From: Octopus vulgaris
Lineage: Eukaryota
Direction: 5' to 3'
Assembly: GCA_951406725.2 (NCBI GenBank)
Contig: OX597816.1
Location: forward strand, 17,298,001-17,362,000
Length of the DNA stretch: 64,000 nucleotides
Under the pieces are notes generated by a model that searched no databases, was not told the origin of the DNA, and worked only from the letters and a program-made list of their open reading frames with translations. This document shows, piece after piece, positions 219 to 62,668 of this stretch. Within the stretch, counting starts at the first letter, position 1. Every line of letters begins with the position of its first letter. The position numbers were made by a program, and so were the translations under genes.

Positions 219-633
219 GGGCAGCAAGCTGGCAGAAACGTTAGCACGCCGGGTGAAATGCTTAGCGGTATTTTGTCTGCCGCTACGTTCTGAGTTCAAA
301 TTCTGCCAAGGTCGACTTTGCCTTTCATCCTTTCGGGGTCGATAAATTAAGTACCAGTCACGCACTGGGGTCGATGTAATCGACTTAATACCTATGTCTG
401 TCCCTGTTTGTATCCTCTGTGTTTAGCCCCTTGTGGGTAATAAAGAAATAGGTATTTTGTCTGCCGCTACGTTCTGGGTTCAAATTCTGCCAAGGTCGAC
501 TTTGCCTTTCATCCTTTCGGGGTCGATCAATTAAGTACCAGTTACATACTGGGGTCGATATAATCGACTTAATCTCTTTTTCTGTCCTTGTTTGTCCCCT
601 CTATGTTTAACCCCTTTGGACAATAAAGAAATA
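219..633 (+). mobile_element. tRNA-derived SINE family A, dimer (one head + 2 x ~184-bp body)
   Basis: Head GGCAGCAAGCTGGCAGAAACGTTAGC, B-box-like GAGTTCAAATTC, core GCCTTTCATCCTTTCGGGGTCGATAAATTAAGTACCAG twice. Unit junction AAATAG|GTATTT at 451/452. Flanking direct repeat AGAAAGATCTATC(T/A)GTGT at 199-216 and 634-651. Confidence 0.9.
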
Positions 634-2734: not shown

Positions 2735-3012
2735 ACTGTAAGCACAAGGCCCGAAATTTTTGGGGAGGGGGCCAGTCAATTAGATCAACCCCAGTACACA
2801 AATGGTACATATTTATTCACCACCAAAAGGATGAAAGGCAAAGTTGCCTCAGCGGGATTTGAACTCAGAATGTAAAGACAGATGAAATATCTATCTGTTT
2901 ACTACCCACAAGGGGCTAAACACAGAGGAGAAAAACAAGGACAAACAAATGGATCAAGTCGATTATATTGACCCCAGTGTGCAACAGTTACTTATTTAAT
3001 CGACCCCGAAAG
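2735..3012 (-). mobile_element. SINE family A chimeric dimer fragment (two tail types)
   Basis: Body with the TTGTGGGTAGTAAA tail is joined near 2890, at the usual junction, to a unit with the GGCCCCTCCCCAAAAATTTCGGGCCTTGTGC tail. Confidence 0.7.
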
Positions 3013-7997: not shown

Positions 7998-8542
7998 AGA
8001 GATATCAGAGTGGACATGAGAGCAAAGCAAGCCCAAAACCTGCTCTGGTGGGGACAGTTAGCTTTTTTGAGATTGGTACCTGGATTTTGAATGTCTTTCA
8101 CAATAATTAACAACCAAGTATCAAAGCTTATGATGTATGAAAAGAGACCTCGTGAGACCTCTGACAGCAGGTTGCTGTCTGCTCTCACAGAATCAACCAA
8201 AGCAAACAAGTGTGAGAACTCTGAGAAGTAAAACAATAATATTCAAATATAATAAATGATTGTGTCCCTGTTGGTCATGTATGCTGTAGGGGAAAGAAAG
8301 GTAAACCAATGGATGAAGTGGGAGTGAGTGGCAGTGAGTGGTAGTCAGAGGTAACTAACTGCAGGTGAACTGTAGTGAGCTCTGAATTCACCAGTATTTT
8401 AATGAAAATGAAATTAGATCTTTATTGTAAATTATATTTATCCATTTCACAGACATACTTGCTCACACACAACACACACATACACACACACACACACACA
8501 CATATATACACGCACACAAACACACACATACACAAACACACA

Positions 8543-8596
<54 letters not shown>

Positions 8597-8639
8597 GACA
8601 TAGATACACACACAAATGCATATGTATGCCCATTTATAG

Positions 8640-9024
8640 ATGTTTTTCTCAGTTCTGCTGATTGTGGGTCTCCCAGAATGTTTGTCAATATCGACATTTT
8701 TTGGCCATCTTCGAAATGTCTGAACCACTCATATGCTTGTGTGCAGCTCATACACACCTCTCCATACACTTTCTGTGACTTTGCATAGGCTTCTGAGCTG
8801 GCATCACCATGACAACTTTCCCTTTCATTGTTAATGCAACAATCACATGTTACACACCTTCCTTCCAAGCACTGCTGTAAACAGCAGATATGAACTAGGA
8901 TGTTAAAACTTAGTGCACATGCACATCAGAAGTTAAGGCCAATTTTTGCCAAGGAGTTTCACTCTGTGTGCTTTAGCCTTGTTACTATGGCAACAGTATT
9001 GATACTTATTGACCAGATCTCGTA
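8640..9024 (-). mobile_element. Mariner transposon relic (5' TIR + frameshifted N-terminal HTH)
   Basis: Translation EAYAKSQKVYGEVCMSCTQAYEWFRHFEDG / VDIDKHSGRPTISRTE matches the mariner HTH-GRP motif. Terminus TACGAGATCTGGTCAATAAGTATC at about 9001-9024. Confidence 0.75.
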
Positions 9025-10610: not shown

Positions 10611-10677
10611 CCTGGAATGAGAAGTGATATATCAATTTACTGAGTCATCCATATCCTGATATTGTGGGCTTCACACC

Positions 10678-10908
10678 TATTTCTTTACTACCCACAAGGG
10701 GCTAAACACAGAGAGGACAAACAAGGACAGACAAATGGATTAAGTCAATTATATCGACCCCAGTGCATAACTGGTACTTATTTAATCGACCCCGAAAGGA
10801 TGAAAGGCAAAGTCGACCTCAGCAGAATTTGAACTCAGAATGTAATGGCAGCCGAAATACCGCTGACCATTCTAACAGGCGTGCTAATGATTCTGCCAGC
10901 TTGCCGCC
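10678..10908 (-). mobile_element. SINE family A monomer
   Basis: One body plus a partly deleted head. TSD CTTCACAC on both sides. Confidence 0.85.
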
Positions 10909-11695
10909 TTCACACTTGTCCTCATACTGAAGACCAAGTCCAAATCCTTTCTATAAAATGGATTTTACTAAAAACATCCAAAAACCTGATGATTACCCAA
11001 CCTGATTCCATATATTTACTTTCTCTCATAAGACTTGCATCATTCTGAGACTAGGCTAGAAGACAACTTGCCTAAGGGACTATGCAGCAGTTTTGAACTC
11101 ACAACAGCATCATGGTGAGGCCTACATTTTAACCGAATACCAATGTCTGCATCCATCTCCTCTGTAAACTATTATAGAATTCTTCGATTAGACAGTGTCC
11201 CCCTCTAATATATCTCATGATAAATATTCTTGATTAGATTGTCTAAGCCATTAAGAATAAATTGTCTTTTTCCAGAGACACTACACAGCCACAATGATGG
11301 AATAGGACCTGTTGACTTTTCAGCTGTTAGGCTGTATCATATCAATTTAACCAGCTGCTTCTCTTACCAATAATATTGATTCAATAAATAATATCCTCTA
11401 TCCTACATAAATTCACTTTGTACTTACTTGAAAGGAATAACATTATCAATAATTGCTGTTGTTGTTGTTATTGTAGTTGTTCTTCTTGTTGTTTTTCTTG
11501 ATATACTCGGTCATTAGAGCGATGGATGGCAGAATAGTTACAGAATTTTGGGTAGTAAATGGTATGGCCATCTTGCTCCCGCATTCCACATTGCCTGGTC
11601 TAACACCATTATCATGTTGTAAAAAATATCGACACCTCCGCAGACCAGGGGCAGTGAAACCAGGCCTCCAGCCTGCGGGTATGTTAATATCTACT

Positions 11696-12655
11696 TCTTT
11701 ACTTCCCACAAGGGGCTAAACACAGAGGGGACAAACAAGGACAGACACACGGATTAAGTCGATTACATCGACCCCAGTGCGTAACTGGTACTTAATTTAT
11801 CAACCCCAAAAGGATGAAAGGCAAAGTCGACCTCGGTGGAATTTGAACTCAGAACATAACGGCAGACGAAATACCTATTTCTTTACTACCCACAAGGGGC
11901 TACACACAGAGAGGACAAACAAAGACAGACAAACGGATTAAGTCGATTACATCGACCCCAGTGTGTAACTGGTACTTAATTTATCAACCCAAAGGATGAA
12001 GGCAAAGTCGACCTCGGTGGAATTTGAACTCAGAACATAACGGCAGACGAAATACCTATTTCTTTACTACTCACAAGGGGCTAAACACAGAGGGGACAAA
12101 CAAGGACAGACAAACAGATTAAGTCAATTACATCAACCCCAGTGCGTAACTGGTACTTAATTTATCGACCTGAAAGGATGAAAGGCAAAGTCGACCTCGG
12201 TGGAATTTGAACTCAGAATGTAACGGCAGATGAAATACCTATTTCTTTACTACCCACAAGGGGCTAAACACAGAGAGGACAAACAAGGACAGACACATGG
12301 ATTAAGTTGATTACATCGACCTCAGTGCATAACTGGTACTTATTTAATCAACCCCGAAAGGATGAAAAACAAATTCGACCTCGGCGGAATTTGAACTCAG
12401 AACGTAACGGCAGACGAAATACCTATTTCTTTACTACCCACAAGGGGCTAAACACAGAGAGGAGAAACAAGGATAGACAAACGGATCAAGTCGATTATAT
12501 CGACCCCAGTGTGTAACTGGTACTTATTTAATTGACACTGAAAAGATGAAAGGCAAAGTCGACCTTGGCGGAATTTGAACTCAGAACGTAGCGACAGACG
12601 AAATACTACTGAGCATTTCGCCCGGTGAGCTAACGTTTCTGCCAGCTCGCTGCCT
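11696..12655 (-). mobile_element. SINE family A pentamer (5 bodies, 1 head)
   Basis: Units start at about 11698, 11881, 12062, 12245 and 12429, joined by GAAATAC|CTATTTC. Head at 12605-12655. Short TSD TCTACT. Confidence 0.92.
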
Positions 12656-12720
12656 TCTACTCTAAAGATATATATATATATAAAATGTACGTATGCTGCT
12701 AAATATATATATGTATATAT

Positions 12721-12951
12721 ATTTCTTTACTACCCACAAGGGGCTAAACACAGAGGGGACAAACAAGGACAGACACATGGATTAAGTTGATTACATCGAC
12801 CCCAGTGCATAACTGGTACTTAATTTATTGACCCCAAAACGATGAAAGGCAAAGTCGACCTCTGTGGAATTTGATCTCAGAACGTAACGGCAGATGAAAT
12901 ACCGCTAAGCATTTCGCCCGGCGTGCTAATGATTCTGCCAGCTCACCGCCT
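12721..12951 (-). mobile_element. SINE family A monomer
   Basis: Full head plus body. Confidence 0.9.
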
Positions 12952-14084
12952 TATGATTGATGCATTGGTTCCTTCTACTGTAAGAACCAATAAGTCGCAT
13001 GTTCTTCCTCTCTTTCTTCCTTGACCATTCTCTGAGGCCTTCCAGAATCTCATTGGTGTTTCCCTTACTCCTTTGATTAAGTAATAAAAGACACTATATA
13101 TAAAAATCAAAAAGAAAAAAATAAAGAAAAAAGGCAAAAAAAAAGAAGAAAGTAAAGAAAAATGGAAAAAAATGCCTTATGATATTTCGTTGTACCCCTT
13201 TACATTCTGAATTAAAATTCCACCGAGACTAACTTTGTTTTTCATCCTTCAGGAAGAGTCAATAAAATAAGTACCATTCTAATAACGAGATCAATATAAT
13301 GAACTGTTTCTTCTCTTTAATATTTCTAGCCTTGTACATATGTTAGAAATCAATATTATATACACATTGATTGTAAGGTCTTCTTTTCCACTAGAAAGTA
13401 TTTTCTTTAAAGTAATTTTACTTTCAATCAAATCAGAGATATGAGAAGTAACTTTATGTTTAATTTACAGAATAGTTTTCATGTGAAAGATTTCATGGTA
13501 TAAAAATCTTAAATATGTCTGTTAAGCAAGATATTTCAGACATCTGATTGTTAGCTATACTTCTATATCCTTTTGCCAATCTACAATTTCTGCTTTGTTG
13601 AGTGAGTAAGCTTCAGGCATCACACAACTTTCTCTCTTTCTTGTTTTTTTTTTTTTTTCCACTAAGTATAGCAATATACAGATGCAGTTTGAGTTGTTGT
13701 CGATTGGCCCCCAGGTCAGAGCTGTCAGACCACACTTATGACCAAAGATGTTCAAGCTCTGAACGTACCATCTTCGTTTTCAAGACTAAGAGTGTCTAGG
13801 ACTACATAATTTAATGTGTCTTTTTTTTTTTTAAAAAAAAAAGATGATAGACTCCAACCAGAGGAAGATTTAACTGCTATTTCTTGCAGTTAGGAAGCCC
13901 TCATTGAAGTTCCTTTCCTGATTTACACCGACACAACTTACATATTTTATTGTTGTTTATCAGCATTATCATAATTTATGCAAAGGCTAAAACATTTCAG
14001 TTATGTTTGACTGTACTTACTCTTGTTTCTCTCACCTCCATGGAATATTGGGTGATGAGGACCTGCATCACCTTACTACCTGCA

Positions 14085-14659: not shown

Positions 14660-14985
14660 AGACAGTGAGCTGGCAGAATTGTTAGCACACCGGGCGAAAT
14701 GCGTAGCCGTATTTCGTCTGCTCTTACGTTCTGAGTTCAAATTCCGCCGAGTCGACTTTGCCTTTCATCCTTTTGGGATCGATAAATTAAGTACCAGTTA
14801 CGCACTGGGGTCGATTTAATTGACTTAATGCGTTTGTCTGTCCTTGTTTGACCCTTCTATGTTTAGCCCCTTGTGGGCAATAAAGAAATAAGAATTGTTA
14901 GCACACTGGGAAAAATGCTTAGTAGCATTTCATCCGTCTTCAAGTTCTGAGTTCAAATACTATTAATGCCGACTTTGCCTTAACT
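14660..14985 (+). mobile_element. SINE family A copy followed by partial second copy
   Basis: Head plus body, then re-entry into the head (AGAATTGTTAGCACAC) at about 14891. Confidence 0.8.
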
Positions 14986-15164
14986 TCTTTTATAAAATAG
15001 CTGCAGCATAAAATTCTTAGTATGGTCCTAAGGCAACACCTATGGAAAACTCACTTCCAATGTATTCCATTAATATAAATAGATTTCCTTGATATAATTT
15101 CTGGACGTTGCATCATCTGCTTTTCATTTTGACCAGAATTTGTTATTAGGATAATGATTGTTAT

Positions 15165-20423: not shown

Positions 20424-20845
20424 TCTATGTTTGACTTTTGCTTTATGTCTGTACAAGTTGGCTCCAAGTCTCACCCAGAGACCTCAAGAGACAACAGGTT
20501 GGAAGTTCTGTGCCATACATTTGGGGGGTTTTTTTGGTTTTTTTTGGTGTTGTACTAGTGAATGTCTAATACATAAAAATAAAAAATAAATAAATAAATA
20601 AATAAAAATAAATAAAAAAAAGTTTGTTTTAAAACTTGGGATTACATAGAGAGTATTTTGCGTAGGATATGAGCAGTTCCCATGAGCACTATCTTTTGAA
20701 TTTCTGCCATTTTGGGGTTTCCTGGTATCTGAGTTAGGTAGCAATCAGTCCCTTTCGCTATCATTCCCAGGACACCTATGACAACAGGTATTGTTTTAGT
20801 CTTCAGCTTCCACATTTTGCTGATTTCTATTTCAAGATCTTTATA

Positions 20846-20850
<5 letters not shown>
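20424..20850 (-). mobile_element. R4/Dong-clade LINE 3' end in (TAA)n
   Basis: KYKDLEIEISKMWKLKTKTIPVVIGVLGMI...IQKIVLMGTAHILRKILSM* is the C-terminus of a restriction-like endonuclease domain. (TTA)n on both sides. Confidence 0.85.
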
Positions 20851-20887
<37 letters not shown>

Positions 20888-22864: not shown

Positions 22865-23495
22865 AGGCACTGTCGTGGCTGTGTGGTGAGAAGCTGGCTT
22901 TCCAACCACTTGGTTCCGGGTTCAGTCCTGCTGCATAGCACCTTGGGCAAAATATCTTGTACTAAAGCCCCGGATTGACCCACGCCTTGCAAGTGGACGT
23001 GGTTGATGGAAAATGAAAAGCCCCCTGTATACGTGTGTGTGTGTATCTGTTACCAATTTCTTTACTACCCACAAGGGGCTAAACACGGAGGAGACAAACA
23101 AGGATAGACAGATGGATGAAGTCGATTATATCGACCCCAGTACATAACTGGTACTTAATTTATTGACCTCTGAAAGAATGAAAGGCAAAGTTGACCTCGG
23201 CGGAATTTGAACTCAGAACGTAGCGGCAAACAAAATACGGCTACACATTTCGCCTGGCGTGCTAACATTTCTGCCAGCTTGCCACCGTTTAACAACTGGT
23301 GTTTGTGTGTTTACATCTCTGCATCATAGCGATCGATTCAGCAAAGGAGACAGATAAAATAAATACCAAACTTGAAAACAAAAAAACAAAAAATAAGTAC
23401 CAGGGTCAATTCATTCGACTCGAAGTTCTTCAAGGCATGGTGCCCCAGCATGGCCACAGCCTAAAGACTGAAACAAGTAAAAGATAAAAGACAAA
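22865..23495 (+). mobile_element. SINE family B interrupted by a SINE-A monomer (23057-23286, minus)
   Basis: The B head and B tail are separated by a complete inverse A copy next to the internal microsatellite. Confidence 0.8.
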
Positions 23496-23674: not shown

Positions 23675-24160
23675 ATCCTTTCATCCTTTCGGGGTCGATA
23701 AATTAAGTACCAGTTGCATACTGTGGTCGATCTAATCAACTGGTCCCCTCTTCAAAAATTTCGGGCCTTGTGCCTAGTGTAGAAAACAAGACAGCAAGCT
23801 GGCAGAAACATTAGCATGCCAGGCGAAATGCTTAGCAGTATCTCATCTGTTTTTACGTTATGAGTTCAATTTTTGCCGAGGTCAACTTTGCCTTTTATCC
23901 TTTAAGGGTCGATAAATTAAGTACCAGTTGCATACTGGGGTCGATACAATTGACTGGACTCCTCCCCAAACATTTCGAGCCTTGTGCCTTTTGTAGAAAA
24001 CAAGGCAGCAAGCTGGCGAGTTCAAATTCTGCCGAGGTCGACTTTACCTTTCATCCTTTTGGGGGTCGATAAAACAAGTACCAGCTGCGTACTGGGGTTG
24101 ATCTAATTGACTGGCCCCCTACCCTCAAAATTTCAGGCCTTGTGTCTAGAGTAGAAAAGA
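23675..24160 (+). mobile_element. Head-to-tail run of SINE-A subfamily copies (GGCCTTGTGCC..AGAAAA tail)
   Basis: Three cores, each later unit restarting at AAG(A/G)CAGCAAGCTGGC. Further copies at 24348-24560 and 24633-24845. Confidence 0.8.
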
Positions 24161-24600
24161 ATATTGCCATGCAAACATGATTAATTAATAAATGAATGTT
24201 AACCACAATTTTCTGCATATTTTGCATATTTTTAAATTTAAAACATTTTAAAAAATATTATTATATGCAGTGTTCGTTATCTTTTGTCAATAAACACAGG
24301 CATTATTTATTTGATCTTCACTTTTATTTTATTATTAATTATTATTTAAGGCAGTGAACTGGCAGAATCGTTAGCACACCAGTCAAGATGCTTAATGGTG
24401 TTTCATCAGTCCTTACATTCTGTGTTCAAATTCCACTAAGGCCAACTTTGCCTTTCATCCTTTCAGAGGTTGATAAATTAAATACCAGTGAAACAGTGGG
24501 GGTCAATGTAATTGACTAGTCCCCTCCAACAAAATTTCAGGACTTGTGCCTATAGTAGAAAGGATTATCATTTTTATTATTATTATTATCATTATTATTA

Positions 24601-29612: not shown

Positions 29613-30277
29613 TTATCCTTGGCAAAATCTGCTTCAACACAGGGGTGGTCTCTGAAATTATACATATGTGCAATACATACGTACACACATACATGTATAT
29701 ATACATTCATACATTCAAAGTGACAGGTAGCGTATTTGGTGTGGGAGATTATTTATTGAAAATACGATGAATATTGTCTCCAACTTTTGAACCACAACTA
29801 TCAGCCTTGTTAAATAAATGGCTAATTTTCAGATGAATTAACTGACATTTTATTGATGATCATTGTGATTTTTCGGCTGAAATTTGACTTTAGTATGCAG
29901 ATAGTTACTATAAACAGCATGGCTGGACACAACATCAACAACAACACAATCGAGGAACAGAACAAAAACAACAGCTCAATATACACACGTGTATATATGT
30001 GCATGCACGTGTGCTTGTGTGAGTGCACAGCCACTCCTGCACCTTTGTTCATAAAGAAGAGATAAATTTCTTCCAGCCTTGTCCATTCTTAAATTCCTCA
30101 CATAAGTAACGGATTATAGTAATACAATAATCCCATAAGGTGATGAGGAAGCAAAACCGTTAAAATGCTGGGAAAATGCTTCCCTGCATTTTGATCCATA
30201 TTTATGTTTAGTTTAAATTCTGTCAATGTTGACTTTTGCCTTTTATCCTTTCAGAGTAAAACAAAGAATCAGTACCT

Positions 30278-30873
30278 ATTTCTTTACAACCCACAAGGGG
30301 CTAAACACAGAGAGGACAAACAAGGACAGACAAACGGATTGAGTCGATTATATCGATCCCACTGCATAACTGGTACTTATTTAATCAACCCCGAAAGGAT
30401 GAAAGGCAAAGTCGACCTCAGCGGAATTTGAACTCAAAATGTAGCGGCAGATGAAATACCTATTTCTTTACTACTCACAAGGGGCTAAACACAGAGGGAC
30501 AAACAAGGACAGACAAACGGATTGAGTCGATTATATAAACCCCAGTGCATAACTGGTACTTATTTAATCAACCCCGAAAGGATGTAAGGCAAAGTCGACC
30601 TCGGCGGTATTTGAACTCAAAACGTAGCGGCAGATGAAATACCTATTTCTCTACTACTCACAAGGGGCTAAACACAGAGGGGACAAACAAGGACAGACAA
30701 ACGGATTGAGTCGATTATATGACCCCAGTGCATAACTGGTACTTATTTAATCAACCCCAAAAGGATGAAAAGCAAAGTCAACCTCGGCGGAATTTGAACT
30801 CAAAACGTAGCGGCAGATGAAATACCGCCAAGTATTTCACCCGGCGTGCTAACGTTTCTGCCAGCTCGCTGCT
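30278..30873 (-). mobile_element. SINE family A trimer nested in an older plus-strand SINE-A
   Basis: Units at about 30282, 30466 and 30649, single head. TSD GAATCAGTACC at 30267-30277 and 30874-30884. Host SINE spans about 30138-30950. Confidence 0.92.
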
Positions 30874-31489
30874 GAATCAGTACCAGCTGGACACTGGGGT
30901 TGATAATTGAATAGCCATTCCTCTGAAATTGCTATCTTTGTGCCAAAATACGAAACCGATGGAGTGATGCCATATTGTTTTCACCTTCCAGCAATGTCTA
31001 ACTCTTCTCTTTTATTAGTGACACTAGCAAAATTCTTCTTCTTCTTCTTCTTGTTAATGCTTTCCATTCTGTAAATTAATGTTTCTTTTTGTTAAAATGT
31101 CAATTTTTCACTTGTCAAAATGTCTTTGTCTGTCTTATTGTTTTCTTGTTTATATTTGTATTTTCATTGTGTTTATTGTTGCAAGTTCTGGTCGATGTTT
31201 TTCCACTCCCTTAAAATGTGAAGCCATAATTACAAGAATGTAAACACATGAAAAGAAAATCTAATATTTTTAAAAAGCGGACTATTTTGTCGAGTCGATC
31301 GACAGGGATGGTATATTCCAAAGTCATCTGCTTACAAAATAACTTCCACTCAAAAATAGAAAACAAAACAAACGAATCCAGCAAGACTTGGTGATAATCT
31401 GATCATCTGAGAACGATCTGAAGACACGTTGGTTCATGCAAAACTAAAACATCTACAATATCACAATCATGTTGATGATGATGATGATC

Positions 31490-32197: not shown

Positions 32198-33681
32198 AAA
32201 GATCAGACAAAAAGGATGTGTTATTTTAATTGACATGAGTATTCCCTGTGATCACAATATAGCGGCGAAAGAATTTGACAAGATTAGTAAATATAAAGAC
32301 CTGCTAATAGAAATTGAAAAAATGTGGCATCCCAAGGCGACTACAGTACCAGTGATTGTAGGATCTCTAGGAATGATAAAAAAAGGTACTGAAACCTATT
32401 TGAAAATGATTCCAGGCTTACCATCCCTACAGGAAGTGCAAAATATCATATTAACTGGAACGGTTCATGTACTGAGAAGAGCTCTATCACTGTGAAAACA
32501 ACATCCATTCATCATCATCCTCATCATCATCGTTTAACGTCTGTTTTTTCTGCGCTAGCATGGGTTGGACGGTTCGACCGGGGATCTGGGAAGCCAAAAG
32601 GCTGCACCAGGCTCCGGTCTTATCTGGCAATGTTTCTACTGCTGGATGCCCTTCCCAATGCCAACCACTCCATAAGTGTAGTGGGTGCTTTTTACGTGTC
32701 ACCTGCACTGGTGCCAGGCGAGGCTGGCATCGGCCACGGTCGGATTGGTGCATTTTACGTGCCACCGGCACGGAAGCCACGATTCGGATGGTGCTTTTTA
32801 CGTGCCACCGACACGGAAGCCAGTCGAGGTGGCGCTGGCATCGGCCACGATTCGGATAGTGCTTTTTACGTATATCCAGTCCAGGGGTCCTGGCATCTGC
32901 CGGGTGCCAGTCATAGAATTGGTTCAATTTCGATTCTGATTTCACTTGCCCCAACAGCTCTTCACAAGCAATGGGGGGTTGGCATAGGTGCCTGTCATCG
33001 GATGAGGTTCGATATTGACTTCGCTTGCCTCAACAGGTCTTTGTGTGTCCAGGGAGGAAAGGCATGCATAAGTGGGCTGGACTCACTTGTCCTGCCTGGT
33101 CTTCTCACGCACAGCATATTTCCAAAGGTCTCGGTCGCTGGTCATTTCCTCAGTGAGACCTAAAGTTTGAAGGTCCTGCTTCACCACCTCATCCCAGGTT
33201 TACCTGGGTCTACCTCTTCCACGGGTTCCCTCCACTGCTAGGGATTGGCACTTTTTCACACACCTATCTTCATCCATTCTCACCACATGACCATACCAGC
33301 GCAATCATCTCTCTTGCACACCACAACTGATGCTCCTTAGGTCCAACATTTCTCTCAGGGTACTAACGCTCTGTCGAGCATGCACACTGACATTACACAT
33401 CCATCGGAGCATACTGGCTTCATTTCTTGCGAGCTTATGCATGTCCTCAGCAGTCACGGCCCATGTTTCACTGCCATGTAGCATGGCTGTTCATACACTT
33501 GCATCATACAGTCTGCCTTTTACTCTGAGCATGAACTCATTTATTTATTAAAGTTTTTAAATACGTATTTTACCTGTGAATTTGCATGTGTAATCTGGGA
33601 ATGCATACAATGAGCTTCTCTGCCCTAGGTGTATGGAAAATACTCGGCGAGAAACAGAAGAAAATTTGAAGAAAGGAGGAA

Positions 33682-33998: not shown

Positions 33999-34395
33999 GG
34001 CGAAAGAATTTGACAAGCTCAGAAAATATAAAGACCTGCTCATTGAAATTGAGAAAATGTGGCATCTCAAGGCGGTTACAATACCAGTGATCGTAGGAGC
34101 ACTAGGAATGATCAAGAAGGGAACCGAAAATTATATGAGAATGATCCCTGGCTTACCATCCCTGCAAGAAGTGCAAAAGATTGTCTTAACTGGTACATCA
34201 CACGTATTGAGAAGAGCATTGTCGATGTGAGAACTATTACTACCCATGTATTTTAATTTAACTTAAAAAGAAAAAAATGAACGAACTATTGAGAATAGTT
34301 TGGTGGCCTACCAATGTATACTATGAGTTTCTTTGCCCTAGGAGTCGGGAAGACACTCGGCAAGAAATGGAAGCAAATTTGAAAGAAGGAAAAAA
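33999..34395 (+). mobile_element. R4/Dong LINE 3' end (different subfamily) in (TAA)n
   Basis: AKEFDKLRKYKDLLIEIEKMWHLKAVTIPVIVGALGMIKKG...LTGTSHVLRRALSM*. Confidence 0.88.
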
Positions 34396-34759: not shown

Positions 34760-35990
34760 TTGAAGTACCAATTTAAGGAAGCAGAATATTCAAAGCCCAG
34801 AGGGTATTTTACAAACGGAGAAGCAAAAGTATAGGGTGCAAAATGACTATCTAGTATTTTTCTATGGATATGAAAATCAGAAAGAAGAAAACACATGATG
34901 ATGGAGAATATTCAGCATCAAATGGTTGCAAAGAGTCCAAAATGACATAATTGAGATGGCAATAGACATGAACAGGATCAGTGACAAAATAAGATGTAGT
35001 TGGATCTGGACCTTGTTGGGTCTGGATCAGACATGTTCTCAGATAAGATTGAGAACGTGATTATATGGTGGCACTAAAGGGACAGCCTGAGGGGAAAAGA
35101 GCAGCAAAGTGCTTTAGAGTCACCATGATATTTTTAACCCTTTTGATACCAACCCAGCTGAAACTACCTCTGGCTCTATGCTACAAATGTCTTGTTTTCA
35201 TAAGTTCTGAATTAAAATCTTCCACCAAACCTTAGTCACAATTTATGTTCCTAACACTAGCTTAATGATAACTAAGTTATTTTACTAAATTCTTTGTTAT
35301 ATTTAAAATTAATTGAAAGAAATACAGAGCATCTCAACAGAAATATGGTAAAAAAGGGTTAAAGTCACCATGATATTTTTAACAATTTTGATACCAACCT
35401 GGTTGAAACCACCTCTGGCTCTGAGTACAAATGTTTTGTTTTCATAAGTTTTGAATTAAAATCTTCCACCAAATCTTAGTCACAATTTATGTTCCTAACA
35501 CTAGCTTAATGATAACGAAGTTATTTCACTAAATTCTTTGTTATATTTAAAATTAATTGAAAGAAACACAGAGCATCTCAAAAGAAATATGGTAACAAAA
35601 GGGTTAAAATATATAATAGAGAAACAATTCTTAACCCTTTTGATATCAACCTGGCTGAAACCAGCTCTGACTCTGAGTACAAGTGTCTTGTTTTCATAAG
35701 TTTTGAATTAAAATCTTCTACCAAACCTTAGTCAAAATTTATCTTCCTGACACTAGCTTAATGATAACCAAGTTATTTTACTAAATTCTTTGTTATATTT
35801 AAAATCAATTGAAAGAAACATAGAGCATCTCAAAATAAATATGGTAACAAAAGGGTTAAAACTACATGGTTAAGGGTCATTGACAAAAAAGGAGACAAGA
35901 TGGGTGGAGAAGGTGGAATGGGACCAGAACAATAGTAGAAAACAGAACTGGTTGGAGATATTGTGTTGTGGCCTTGTGTGCCTCATGACA
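34760..35990 (+). pseudogene. Ancient RTE C-terminal relic interrupted by MITEs
   Basis: RISDKIRCSWIW...HVLR...VALKGQPEGKRA before the MITEs and TTWLRVIDK...ENRTGWRYCVVALCAS* after them. Confidence 0.55.
35138..35855. mobile_element. Three piggyBac-type MITE copies (~221 bp)
   Basis: TTAA|CCCTTTTGATACCA...TGGTAACAAAAGGG|TTAA at 35138-35358, 35383-35603 and 35635-35855. Confidence 0.9.
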
Positions 35991-43197: not shown

Positions 43198-44773
43198 TTA
43201 ATCATTTTGAAACCAACACATCTTTTTTTTTTTACTACCCACAAGGGGCTAAACACAGAGAGGACAAACAAGAACAGACAAATGGATTAAGTCGATTATA
43301 TTGACTCATTGACCCCGAAAGGATGAAAGACAAAGTCGACCTCGGCGGAATTTGAACTCAGAACGTAGCAGCAGACGAAATACCTATTTCTTTACTACTC
43401 ACAAGGGGCTAAACACAGAGAGGACAAACAAGAACAGACAAATAGATTAAGTCGATTATATCGACCCCAGTGCATAACTGGTACTTAATTTATCGACCCC
43501 GAAAGGATGAAAGGCAAAGTCGACCTTGGTGGAATTTGAACTCAGAATGTAAAGACAGATGAAATAACTATTTCTTTACGACCCACAAGGGGTTAAACAC
43601 AGAGAGGACAAACAAGGACAGACAAAGGGACTAAGTCGATTATATCGACCCCAGTGTGTAACTGGTACTTAATTTATCGACCCTGAAAGGATGAAAGGCA
43701 AAGTTGACCTCGGCGAAATTTGAACTCAGAATGTAGCGGCAGATGAAATACCTATTTCTTTATTACCCACAAGGGGCTAAACGCAGAAGGGACAAACAAG
43801 GACAGACAAATAGATGAAGTCGATTATATCGAGCCCAGTGCGTAACTGGTACTTAATTTATCGACCCTGAAAGGATGAAAGGCAAAGTCGACTTCGGTGG
43901 AATTTGAACTCAGAACATAGCGGCAGACGAAATACCTATTTCTTTACTATCCACAAGGGGCTAAGCACAGAGAGGACAAACAAGGAGAGACAAATGAATT
44001 AAGTCGATTATATTGACCCAGTGCGTAACTGGTACTTAGTTGATCGACCCTGAACGGATGATAGGCAAAGTCGACCTCGGCGGATTTTGAACTCAGAACG
44101 TAATGGCAGACAAAATACCTATTTCTTTACTACCCACAAGGGGCTAAACACAGAGAGGACAAACAAGGACAGACAAACGGATGAAGTCGATTATAACGAC
44201 CCCAGTGCGTAACTGGTACTTAATTTATCAACCCCGAAAGGATGAAAGGCAAAGCTGACCTCGGCGGAATTTGAACTTAGAAATGTAGCGGCAGATAAAA
44301 TACCTATTTCTTTACTACCCACAAGGGGTTAAACATAGAGGGGACAAACAAGGATAGACATAGGTATTAAGTTGATTACATCGACCCCAGTGCATAACTG
44401 GTACTTAATTTATCGATCCCGAAAGAATGAAAGGTAAAGTCGACCTCGGCAGAATTTGAACTCAGAATGTAGCGGCAGACAAAATACCACTAAGCATTTT
44501 ACCCGGTGTGCTAACGATTCTGCCAGTTTGCTGCCTTCAATGATACCAACACATCTGAGACTGTCCCAGGTTCTATGATACAAACTTCCTGTCTTTAAAG
44601 CGATCTAAATTGAAATCTTTTATCAAAATTTCATGTTATGTTCCAAACACCAGCTCAATAATAATAACAAAGATATTTTCCTGAATTCTTCATTACTTTC
44701 GAAATTAATTGAGAAAAATAAACAGGAAAACAGATAGGGTGCTTCAACAGAAATATGATAACAAAAGGGTTAA
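43198..44773. mobile_element. Diverged piggyBac-type MITE split by the SINE-A heptamer
   Basis: Left end TTAATCATTTTGAAACCAAC and right end ATGATAACAAAAGGGTTAA resemble the 35138 MITE termini. Confidence 0.7.
43224..44537 (-). mobile_element. SINE family A heptamer (7 bodies, 1 head)
   Basis: Units at about 43232, 43391, 43575, 43759, 43943, 44126 and 44311. Head at 44488-44537. TSD ACCAACACATCT at 43212-43223 and 44545-44556. Confidence 0.93.
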
Positions 44774-45029
44774 TATTTCAGATGACTTTCAATTTCTATG
44801 TTTTGCGTCAGTTTTCTGTTATGAATAACATAGGCTAAATTTTATGAGGACTTCATTTTAACAACAACCAAACACTGAAGCAGATAATCGAATTGCAATT
44901 TTAAAATCAATAATATGTCTTGTGAGTGAATTCAGTAAATGGTAATAATGTGGAAGCCCATAATGAGTGTATGCATATGTGTGTATAATTGTGATTGTGT
45001 ATATGTGTGGTGTGTGCTCAAATGGATAC

Positions 45030-47641: not shown

Positions 47642-48429
<788 letters not shown>

Positions 48430-55299: not shown

Positions 55300-55879
55300 A
55301 TCCTTTTATTCTTTCATTTGTTTCAGCCATTTGACTGTGGCCATGCTGGAGCAACACCTTTAGTTGAACAAATCGACCCCAGGACTTATTCTTTGGAAGC
55401 CTAGTACTCATTTTATCGGTCTTTTGCTGAACCGCTAAGTTACTGGGACATAAACACACCTGCATCGGTTGTCAAGTGATGTTGGGGGACAAACACACAC
55501 ACACACACATACGATAGTCTTCTTTCAGTTTCCATCTACCAAATCCACTCACAAGCCTTGGTTGGCCCGAGGCTATAGTAGAAGACACTTACCCAAGGTG
55601 TCACGCAGTGGGACTGGACCCGGAACTATGTGGTTCATAAGCAAGCTACTTACCACACAGCCACTCCTGTGCCTATACACACACATATACACATACACAC
55701 ACATATATATGTATATATGACAGGCTCCTTTCAGTTTCTGTCTACCAAATCCATTTAAAAACCTTTGGTCAGCCCAAGGCTAAAGTAGAAGGTACATGCC
55801 CAAGGTGCCAAGCAGTGGGATTGAACCCAGAACCATGTGGTTGGTAAGCAAGCTACTTACCACATAGCCACTCCTGCAC

Positions 55880-55923
<44 letters not shown>

Positions 55924-56086
55924 GACAGGCTTCTTTCAGTTTCTGTCTACCAAATCCACTTAGAAAGCTTTGGTCAGCCCAAGGCTAAAGCAGAAAATAC
56001 TTGCCCAAGGTGCCAAGCAGTGGGACTTAATCCGGAACCATGTGGTCAGGAAACAACCTTCTTCCTTCACATCTCCACCTGCACCT
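55300..56086 (-). mobile_element. SINE-B with two additional tandem 5' halves
   Basis: The head segment repeats at about 55515-55675, 55717-55880 and 55922-56086, separated by (CA)n. Confidence 0.8.
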
Positions 56087-56655
56087 ACGTCTATCTATGT
56101 CTGCACGTATGTCTATCTATAATAGACAGAATATTTATTATCAACAGAATTGTCTATAGTAATTAAAGAATCAATTAATGAATCAATTTGAGCATAAGAA
56201 CCATTTAGTTAATGAGACTTCATTCATTTTAGCATATCCATTGAATTTTCTATAAAAAGAATGATGCAATTTGCAGGTGTGAAGTATAAAATTTTGAACA
56301 TAAGATATATTTTGTTTCATGACAAAAATGTATTGACTAATAAAATTGTGCTGTTTCCCAGGAGGTTGTGTCTGTATATGCTGATAGGAAAAATAAGCAG
56401 GAAGAGAAAAATATATTCAAACAGCATACAATTACTCTTATACAAGTAACATGTACATGCACATTAATGATTCCACCATGAATTTTTAACTAATATCTAC
56501 CTCATACAGTGTCTGATAACTGTTGCCCTCAAAACTTCTGGCAGAATCAGTCATTAAACCGATATTGTTTATTGTATCTCTGCATTTTTATATTTTCATT
56601 TCTAGCATTATCAATACTGGGTCTCTAACTTTGTGGTACGAAGCTTGCTTACATA

Positions 56656-62379: not shown

Positions 62380-62612
62380 AAGGGTGGTGAGCTGGCAGAA
62401 ATGTTAGAATGCAGGGTAAAATGCTTAGCAGGATTTTGTCTGCTGTTATGTTCTGAGTTCAAATTCCACCGAGGTTGACTTTGCCTTTCATCCTTTTGGG
62501 TTTGATTAAATAAGAACCAGTTACACACTGGGGTCGATGTAATTGAGGTAATCCCTTTGTCTGTCCTTGTTTGTCTCCTCTATGTTTAGCCACCTGTGGG
62601 CAATAAAGAAAT
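62380..62612 (+). mobile_element. SINE family A monomer inside SINE-B microsatellite
   Basis: Full A copy between the B tail (62155-62370) and B head (62700-62865), both minus strand. Confidence 0.8.
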
Positions 62613-62668
62613 ACATACATCATCATCGTTTAACGTCCATTTTCCGCGCTAGCACGGGTTATGCATAT

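Follow-up and report, generated by a model that had tools for sequence, protein, structure and literature searches.

How does a short interspersed element come to stand in a genome as a chain of bodies behind a single promoter head? The question is raised by four arrays in the 64,000-nucleotide stretch of Octopus vulgaris DNA analysed here (contig OX597816.1, positions 17,298,001 to 17,362,000; hereafter the window). Read on its sense strand, the array-family element consists of a 49-base head and a 184-base body, giving a monomer of ~233 bp. A body unit covers element positions 50–233, and the leading unit of each array bears the head. Nine loci of the family (four arrays and five monomers) make up 7% of the window, and the arrays hold two (array A), five (array B), three (array C) and seven (array D) bodies. 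The copies are arranged as follows.

43224–44537, minus strand: array D, a head and seven body units
44488–44537, minus strand: head of array D, element positions 1–49, with an A-box match at 44511–44525
44304–44487, minus strand: unit D1, with a B box at 44451–44461; 109G, 123A, 125C and 127A are common to D1 and A1
44119–44303, minus strand: unit D2, with a 1-base insertion
43936–44118, minus strand: unit D3
43752–43935, minus strand: unit D4
43568–43751, minus strand: unit D5
43384–43567, minus strand: unit D6, of sister-family type in its first ~16 bases (13T, 15T, 16T)
43224–43383, minus strand: unit D7, the terminal unit, with about 24 bases deleted and an A-rich end
43212–43223, no strand: 12-bp direct repeat on the tail side of array D
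44545–44556, no strand: 12-bp direct repeat on the head side of array D
219–633, plus strand: array A, a head and two units, with the CAAT tail type in the terminal unit
11696–12655, minus strand: array B, a head and five units
30277–30873, minus strand: array C, a head and three clonal units
10675–10909, minus strand: monomer whose tail continues as GGT, overlapping an 8-bp direct repeat
12720–12951, minus strand: monomer about 65 bp upstream of array B and nearest relative of unit B5
14660–14890, plus strand: monomer that meets an older copy of the sister family at head position 16
23051–23287, minus strand: monomer whose tail continues as GGTA
62382–62613, plus strand: older monomer, 14% from the consensus, with the CAAT tail type
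2735–3011, minus strand: headless chimera, a 5′-truncated array-family unit (2891–3011) joined to a sister-family body and tail

The chains of one promoter head and two to seven copies of the 184-base body are a real feature. The original prediction had described four loci with two, five, three and seven bodies behind a single A-box head, and we find all four in place, array C spanning 30277–30873. Its seven-copy array at 43224–44537 does contain seven units, the last of which lacks about 24 bases (TRF counts 6.4 copies). Units are spaced 181–185 bp apart in the four arrays. The claim that the internal junctions sit at one same point proved exact to the base, as the tail ...GAAATAG runs into element position 50 (GTATTT) in 13 of 13 cases. 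When 14 joints are aligned, all are free of gaps at the point of joining; two of the 13 internal junctions carry a nearby substitution. A motif scan of the four arrays with the A- and B-box consensus found one A-box match per array and one B-box match per unit, as putative Pol III promoter boxes. Thus, the A box alone is single, and the joint falls between the two boxes. The A-box head is absent from all 13 internal units, and units diverge from the family consensus by ~5–9%. An assembly artefact was considered and rejected, the units being 4–15% apart and present at several loci. The family, we assume, may be one of the octopus SINEs (OK, OR1, OR2; Ohshima and Okada 1994) or a Repbase entry.

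A sister or older family shares approximately the first 170 bases of the element, ends in another tail, has at least 10 heads and is more numerous in the window. It forms a head-to-tail chain of its own at 23677–24160 (plus strand), three elements long, in which the heads are kept and the tail runs into position 1. Among the joints listed, a few reads on 12690–13040 show back-joints like those of this chain. A clear gene is absent from the window, whose long frames are microsatellites and transposon remnants. Three tandem units of ~205 bp from another SINE-like family, with (CA)n stretches between them, lie at 55489–56088 (plus strand). An AT-rich repeat of 252 bp, whose ends resemble TAACCCTTT and AAAGGGTTA, is present in three tandem copies at 35114–35860 (plus strand) and as a fragment near 44600–44780. 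Remnants of one same short reading frame occur at 20642–20860 (minus strand), 32214–32495 (plus strand) and 34000–34230 (plus strand); they resemble, we presume, the 3′ end of a LINE, and the two LINE-like remnants tested gave no Pfam family. A weak match to the Mos1 transposase helix-turn-helix at 8422–8925 (minus strand) falls below the cut-off.

The arrays are bounded as wholes, each by one direct repeat, as originally predicted. The repeats measure 18 bp with one mismatch (13 exact) at array A (199–216/634–651), 6 bp at array B (11690–11695/12656–12661), 11 bp at array C (30266–30276/30874–30884) and 12 exact bp at array D (43212–43223/44545–44556), where 7 bases separate the repeat from the head. 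As a chance control, 28-base windows were paired at random 1,500 times; 0.2% of the pairs had an exact match of at least 11 bases and 13.7% one of at least 6 bases, so the 6-bp repeat of array B is weak on its own. Among the monomers, an 8-bp direct repeat is found at one (10675), and a search for target-site repeats found none at three. The outer repeats fit the retrotransposition of whole arrays, which is the leading reading of the sequence. Array C sits antisense in an older sister-family copy (30210–30905), at a GGTAC site matching the array C tail, and its target repeat starts with GGTA. Sister-family heads at 24349, 24641, 26460 and 33944 are preceded by (TTA)n runs, which may hint at a microsatellite-targeting partner; a (TTA)n rule of this kind was sought at the array-family insertions in the window and was not found.

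The joint coincides with a predicted structural element of the head. In nine heads, a long hairpin is predicted for the region ~32–61, looped at ~45–48, and in these the joint falls at the loop edge, at the foot of the 3′ arm. The tail GAAAT is predicted to pair with ATTTC just past the joint and to be able to replace the 5′ arm of the hairpin, so that the joint itself would form a small stem-loop with a 4-base loop. Covariation gave no real support for the head hairpins and none beyond shuffles for the junction stem. The terminal ends of the copies are variable while the internal joints are constant. Two tail types exist, CAAT (...GAAATA) and TAGT; the CAAT type is terminal at three of the nine loci and internal in none of the 13 units. 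Three of the six TAGT terminal tails extend into GGT or GGTA, with which the sequence past the joint begins, and these run-on bases may derive from the target, since they overlap the target repeat in two of the three tails. At 48300–48373 (plus strand), the tail of another element related to the CAAT type is followed by (TATC)n, a likeness that suggests a shared partner LINE. A partner LINE sharing the family tail was not found in the window, where this tail matches only family copies.

Two joints involve the sister family. The chimera at 2735–3011 has a standard-site joint at 2890 to a sister-family body and no head upstream, and unit D6 starts in the sister type. The combination of 13T, a non-G at 15 and 16T is present in 6 of the 10 sister heads, and 13T and 15T occur together in only 1 of the 22 array-family units. 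Just two of the 14 joints do not begin with G, namely the chimera at 2890 and D6. Plain recombination over the ~117 shared bases would, by our estimate, place the switch within ~12 bases of the chimera joint about once in ten. The monomer at 14660 shows another kind of contact between the families. Here (14660–14991, plus strand), a young copy with 13 mismatches in 182 interrupts the head of a sister copy that is old (19 in 64); 16 bp within that head are duplicated (14675–14690, 14891–14906), and one seamless head is left. The 5′ end of the young copy is in register, hence an insertion into a relative can end with an in-register 5′ side.

The units of an array are clonal in one case and mixed in others. 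CpG sites were left out of the following divergences, and the old monomer at 62382 was excluded from the between-locus controls. Units of array C diverge by 3.7% from one another versus 8.5% between loci (P = 0.001), with seven changes common to all three. Array D (7.9% within versus 8.1% between loci, P = 0.41) and array B (7.3% versus 8.0%, P = 0.21) are as diverse within as between loci, no change being common to all units of B or to all units of D, and the longest array, the 7-mer D, is the least homogeneous. With C2 and C3 excluded from the shuffle pools, the units of D have 0.67 shared derived sites and those of B 1.9 (P = 0.03), versus 0.95 in random sets. The linked markers 77T and 80A pick out one same set of 7 units among the 22; B1 and B2 have both, and B3–B5 have neither. 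The non-CpG set 109G, 123A, 125C and 127A is present in A1 and D1 and, as a set, absent from A2 and D2, a pair whose likeness ranks 146 of 231. In run X1, contigs often carry 125C as well, at a depth of 8.5 out of 26.6 million with the sister family counted in. Lineage markers cut across the arrays, and arrays B and D therefore hold units of several lineages. All four combinations are present in 18 of 21 marker pairs, as expected from exchange between templates, and such patterns can alternatively come from recurrent mutation or conversion.

Neighboring units also carry a local likeness. Outside array C, adjacent units share 2.8 changes versus 1.8 between loci (P = 0.005, for pairs that are not independent). 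A1 and A2 differ at one position in their first 76 bases, where the minimum among 175 between-locus pairs is five. B4 and B5 are identical over their first 57 bases, and the nearest relative of B5 is the monomer 65 bp away. Given this likeness within A, within B and between adjacent units, local conversion or related templates are part of the story.

RNA-level searches gave the following picture. No hammerhead core (CTGAnGA) was found on either strand of a unit dimer, Rfam searches with E limits of 5 and 10 gave no match, and ARAGORN found 0 tRNA genes. The predicted 184-nt circle folds at −34.0 kcal/mol versus −36.6 ± 3.8 kcal/mol in 200 shuffles (z = +0.7). The unit consensus lacks four consecutive T, and Pol III could therefore transcribe across the arrays; present copies have acquired T runs of this length. 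Four of 24 listed runs were aligned to the monomer region 12690–13040, the RNA reads coming from about 6% of each of runs X23 and X24, with 12690–12731 masked as repeat. The two RNA runs gave 65,656 and 57,095 reads, evenly on both strands and mostly less than 90% alike, and outside the masked tail these libraries, weak for a small circle, show no pile-up of RNA starts or ends on the monomer. In the same region, the RNA of X23 and X24 shows A>G at 18 and T>C at 15–17 places, versus 4–5 and 8–9 in DNA contigs, and changes at 12745 and 12747 reach 16–31% of reads; this excess over unmatched DNA may reflect A-to-I editing or high expression of a few loci. At 80% likeness, 242,313 (X1) and 114,148 (X8) contigs match a 351-base stretch, sister family included. 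Their summed depth at the tail and head peaks is 81 versus 51 million (X1) and 9.5 versus 6.8 million (X8), compatible with an excess of bodies over heads; we give this difference no weight, summed depth being no copy number and the tail being CpG-poor. Exact scans for the family motif in metagenome, viral and prokaryote collections gave 0 matches, and blastn against plasmids and phages gave none.

Our preferred reading, to which we assign somewhat less than an even chance, is that the arrays arise by template switching, guided by homology, from one SINE RNA to another at the head hairpin, each array within one insertion. A partner LINE reverse transcriptase would copy the SINE RNA from the tail towards the head, meet the long predicted hairpin (~32–61) and leave a cDNA stalled there. 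RNAs of the main tail type (TAGT) would end in ...GAAAUAGGUA(UUU), repeating positions 49–55, and the RNA 3′ end expected under switching is ...AAAUAGGUA(UUU). By pairing with another RNA at its 3′ end, the cDNA end could let copying continue, in a manner like terminal-repeat-guided strand transfer. Each switch would add one headless body, and once the hairpin is read through, a head would close the chain. On this model, switching would have taken place in about 13 of 22 passes, and the unit numbers (1, 1, 1, 1, 1, 2, 3, 5, 7) fit, as judged by eye, a geometric series with p = 0.59. An array would be clonal (C) when the switch goes to the same or a sibling RNA and mixed (B, D) when it goes to different RNAs, a pattern that later local conversion probably blurred. 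We infer the RNA end, the stall and the enzyme, and the model draws on nine loci only. Such switching would account for the outer repeat, the exact joints, the one head, the mixed units, the sister-family joints, the absence of the CAAT type from internal units and the array lengths. Against it stand the lack of any pile-up of RNA ends in the two RNA runs, the run-on bases that may derive from the target, the local likeness of units within A and B and of adjacent units, the hairpins without real covariation, the partner LINE not found in the window, the other possible sources of the four-combination patterns and the once-in-ten chance that plain recombination made the chimera joint. Non-LTR enzymes are reported to jump and switch templates (PMC8857657, PMC4476161), and blunt jumping of the R2 type is described as relying on non-templated additions (PMC8857657). 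Blunt end-to-end jumping was rejected, as it would likely leave ragged joints and the joints are gap-free. The proposal that the enzyme jumped onto RNAs cut at a fixed site is likewise a poor fit to gap-free joints beside variable terminal ends.

The main rival, possible if doubtful, is that multimeric source genes carry a junction made by one old duplication and inherited ever since. Pol III would read the whole array from its single head, the enzyme would prime at any unit tail, and in-register crossover or conversion in source and daughter loci would set the unit number and mix the markers; such genes may also act alongside switching. The inherited junction covers the 13 of 13 exact joints and the head on all four arrays with no further step, read-through is possible with a consensus that lacks four T in a row, and internal priming accounts for the GGTA run-on. 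The local likeness of adjacent and neighboring units speaks for it too, as does the ascription of like-built squamate arrays to recombination in PMC10702118. However, no ordered marker series is common to two arrays (A1 and D1 have markers in common, unlike A2 and D2), homogeneity is lowest in the longest array, opposite to the squamate arrays, and the two sister-family joints require extra events. The original prediction had argued that independent crossovers would hardly reuse one breakpoint, with GAAAT microhomology as a possible bias. This argument holds only in part: a GAAAT crossover gives the wrong joint, but in-register exchange after the first dimer keeps the junction, so that a fixed junction alone shows no independent events. 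That local DNA duplication multiplied a separate monomer at each array, through slippage or an unequal crossover between stretches of GAAAT microhomology, is very improbable. It would suit the clonal array C, the near-identity of A1 and A2 over 76 bases and the match of B4 and B5 over 57, yet a GAAAT crossover would give GAAAT-GCTTAG and not the joint seen 13 times, and the units of B and D bear markers of different lineages. As the origin of the joint, local duplication is largely refuted.

Stepwise homing, in which a new copy primes at the GGTA site of an existing head or junction through pairing of its tail, is unlikely. The duplicated target would anneal inside the new cDNA, so that the new head is lost and one body is gained per event. 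The copy at 14660 shows the same outcome at another site, the target repeat of array C starts with GGTA, the mixed units fit, and tail-to-target overlap is known for RTE, CR1 and L2 elements (PMC6007223). Yet a body at position 50 was sought in 10 sister-family heads with the same site and found in none, as against 13 additions in nine array-family loci; the chimera at 2890 has no upstream head; and no age gradient was found along the arrays. Nor are the shared changes expected as an inner footprint of target duplication significantly enriched in the first 20 bases of adjacent units (7 of 11 versus 85 of 196, P = 0.16). Quite unlikely, in our judgement, is a circular or ligated RNA, in which a cut in the head hairpin loop and the junction stem-loop would let a host ligase join the 184-nt piece, and the enzyme would roll round the circle or chain before switching onto a head-bearing RNA. 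The same small chance is given to its form as a ribozyme-free circular SINE, with an anticodon-like cut in the hairpin loop, a tail that folds onto the new 5′ end, and circles or chains copied with switching. There are precedents both for circles formed after cleavage of the tRNA type and for RNA ligated ahead of retrotransposition. The exact joint, its place in a predicted 4-base loop that mimics the head hairpin, and the clonality of array C with its seven changes in all three units agree with a circle. Against it, arrays B and D are not clonal, there is neither a hammerhead core nor an Rfam match, no pile-up of RNA ends appears in the weak libraries, the junction stem lacks covariation, and the unit folds no better than shuffles, whereas retrozyme circles are described as highly self-paired (PMC7229834). 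Moreover, a full head ends all four arrays, and position 50 is not the start of any copy. The rolling-circle copying first proposed, with a single circle as template, thus suits array C, but not D or B, and leaves the heads on four of four arrays unexplained.

If template switching is the true origin, a short terminal repeat would make it the majority outcome (13 of 22 passes) at one exact base, an unusually frequent and exact form of the process. It would then offer a retrotransposition route from SINE to tandem array, the published route to satellites being recombination. The arrays would also record which RNAs met in one reverse-transcription complex, which bears on the swapping of SINE modules. 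Should multimeric source genes alone account for the arrays, the result is a modest structural note on one family. As the family makes up 7% of the window, thousands of arrays should exist for testing.

By most of its features, the family is a probable tRNA-derived SINE. It has A and B boxes, target-site repeats, at least 100 genomic copies by contig matches that include the sister family, and a length below 1 kb, the limit given for short interspersed repeats in PMC3531059, which only the 7-mer exceeds. The closest build is that of the squamate satellites sSat1–3 (Vassetzky, Kosushkin and Ryskov 2023; PMC10702118), where, as here, tandem units comprise part of a tRNA-derived SINE and one longer terminal unit reaches the SINE end; sSat3Ati2 (179 nt, with part of the head, the body and the LINE-derived region) and sSat3Gja1 are described with nearly the same build. 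The squamate arrays become more uniform with length, lean to subtelomeric positions and are ascribed to unequal recombination (PMC10702118). In contrast, the octopus arrays are dispersed among monomers (four of nine loci in 64 kb) and are flanked by outer repeats, and the 7-mer does not exceed the family in uniformity. The main text of the squamate paper makes no mention of TSDs (PMC10702118). An sSat is defined by a subtelomeric, heterochromatic position, by at least four middle units, of which D has five and A, B and C fewer, and by homogeneity above that of the parent SINE that rises with unit number, a rise not seen here, where only the 3-mer is homogeneous.

Metazoan non-LTR retrozymes form comparable tandem arrays, with units of 150–450 bp, dimers to multimers, and TSDs longer than 4 bp (PMC7229834). 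As described there, each retrozyme unit has a type I hammerhead and yields a self-paired circular RNA; here the former was not found and the latter not predicted, and the array family has a Pol III-type head, unlike retrozymes. Multimers of Dip of the jerboa, B2 and B1 are reported as frequent, head-to-tail and up to eight units long (PMC8466645), with full-length units (PMC10702118), whereas none of the 13 internal units here has a head. The array family is thus neither a retrozyme nor a chain of full-length SINEs. The U6/LINE and U6/SINE chimeras of the L1, L2 and RTE clades join several RNA templates within one TSD (PMC4476161). They are described as rare, at most tripartite and variable in their LINE breakpoints, in contrast to up to six consecutive joints at one base within one family. 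The Cassandra TRIM (PMC7215508) is a Pol III-promoter retroelement found in tandem arrays, with alternating LTR and internal parts; the octopus arrays have no LTRs. A short-motif search of one MetaSINE supplement gave no match to the array family, and the structure is not described in the available sections of PMC13282606, PMC12988792, PMC9795677, PMC4758252, PMC4824008, PMC5804259 and PMC3531059. We found no description of a one-headed SINE chain in a cephalopod, and Ohshima and Okada (1994) and repeat databases may bear on this novelty. SINE-derived satellites and rare template-switch chimeras are known, and what appears to be new, judging from the sequence, is the dispersed, TSD-flanked and non-homogenised one-headed array.
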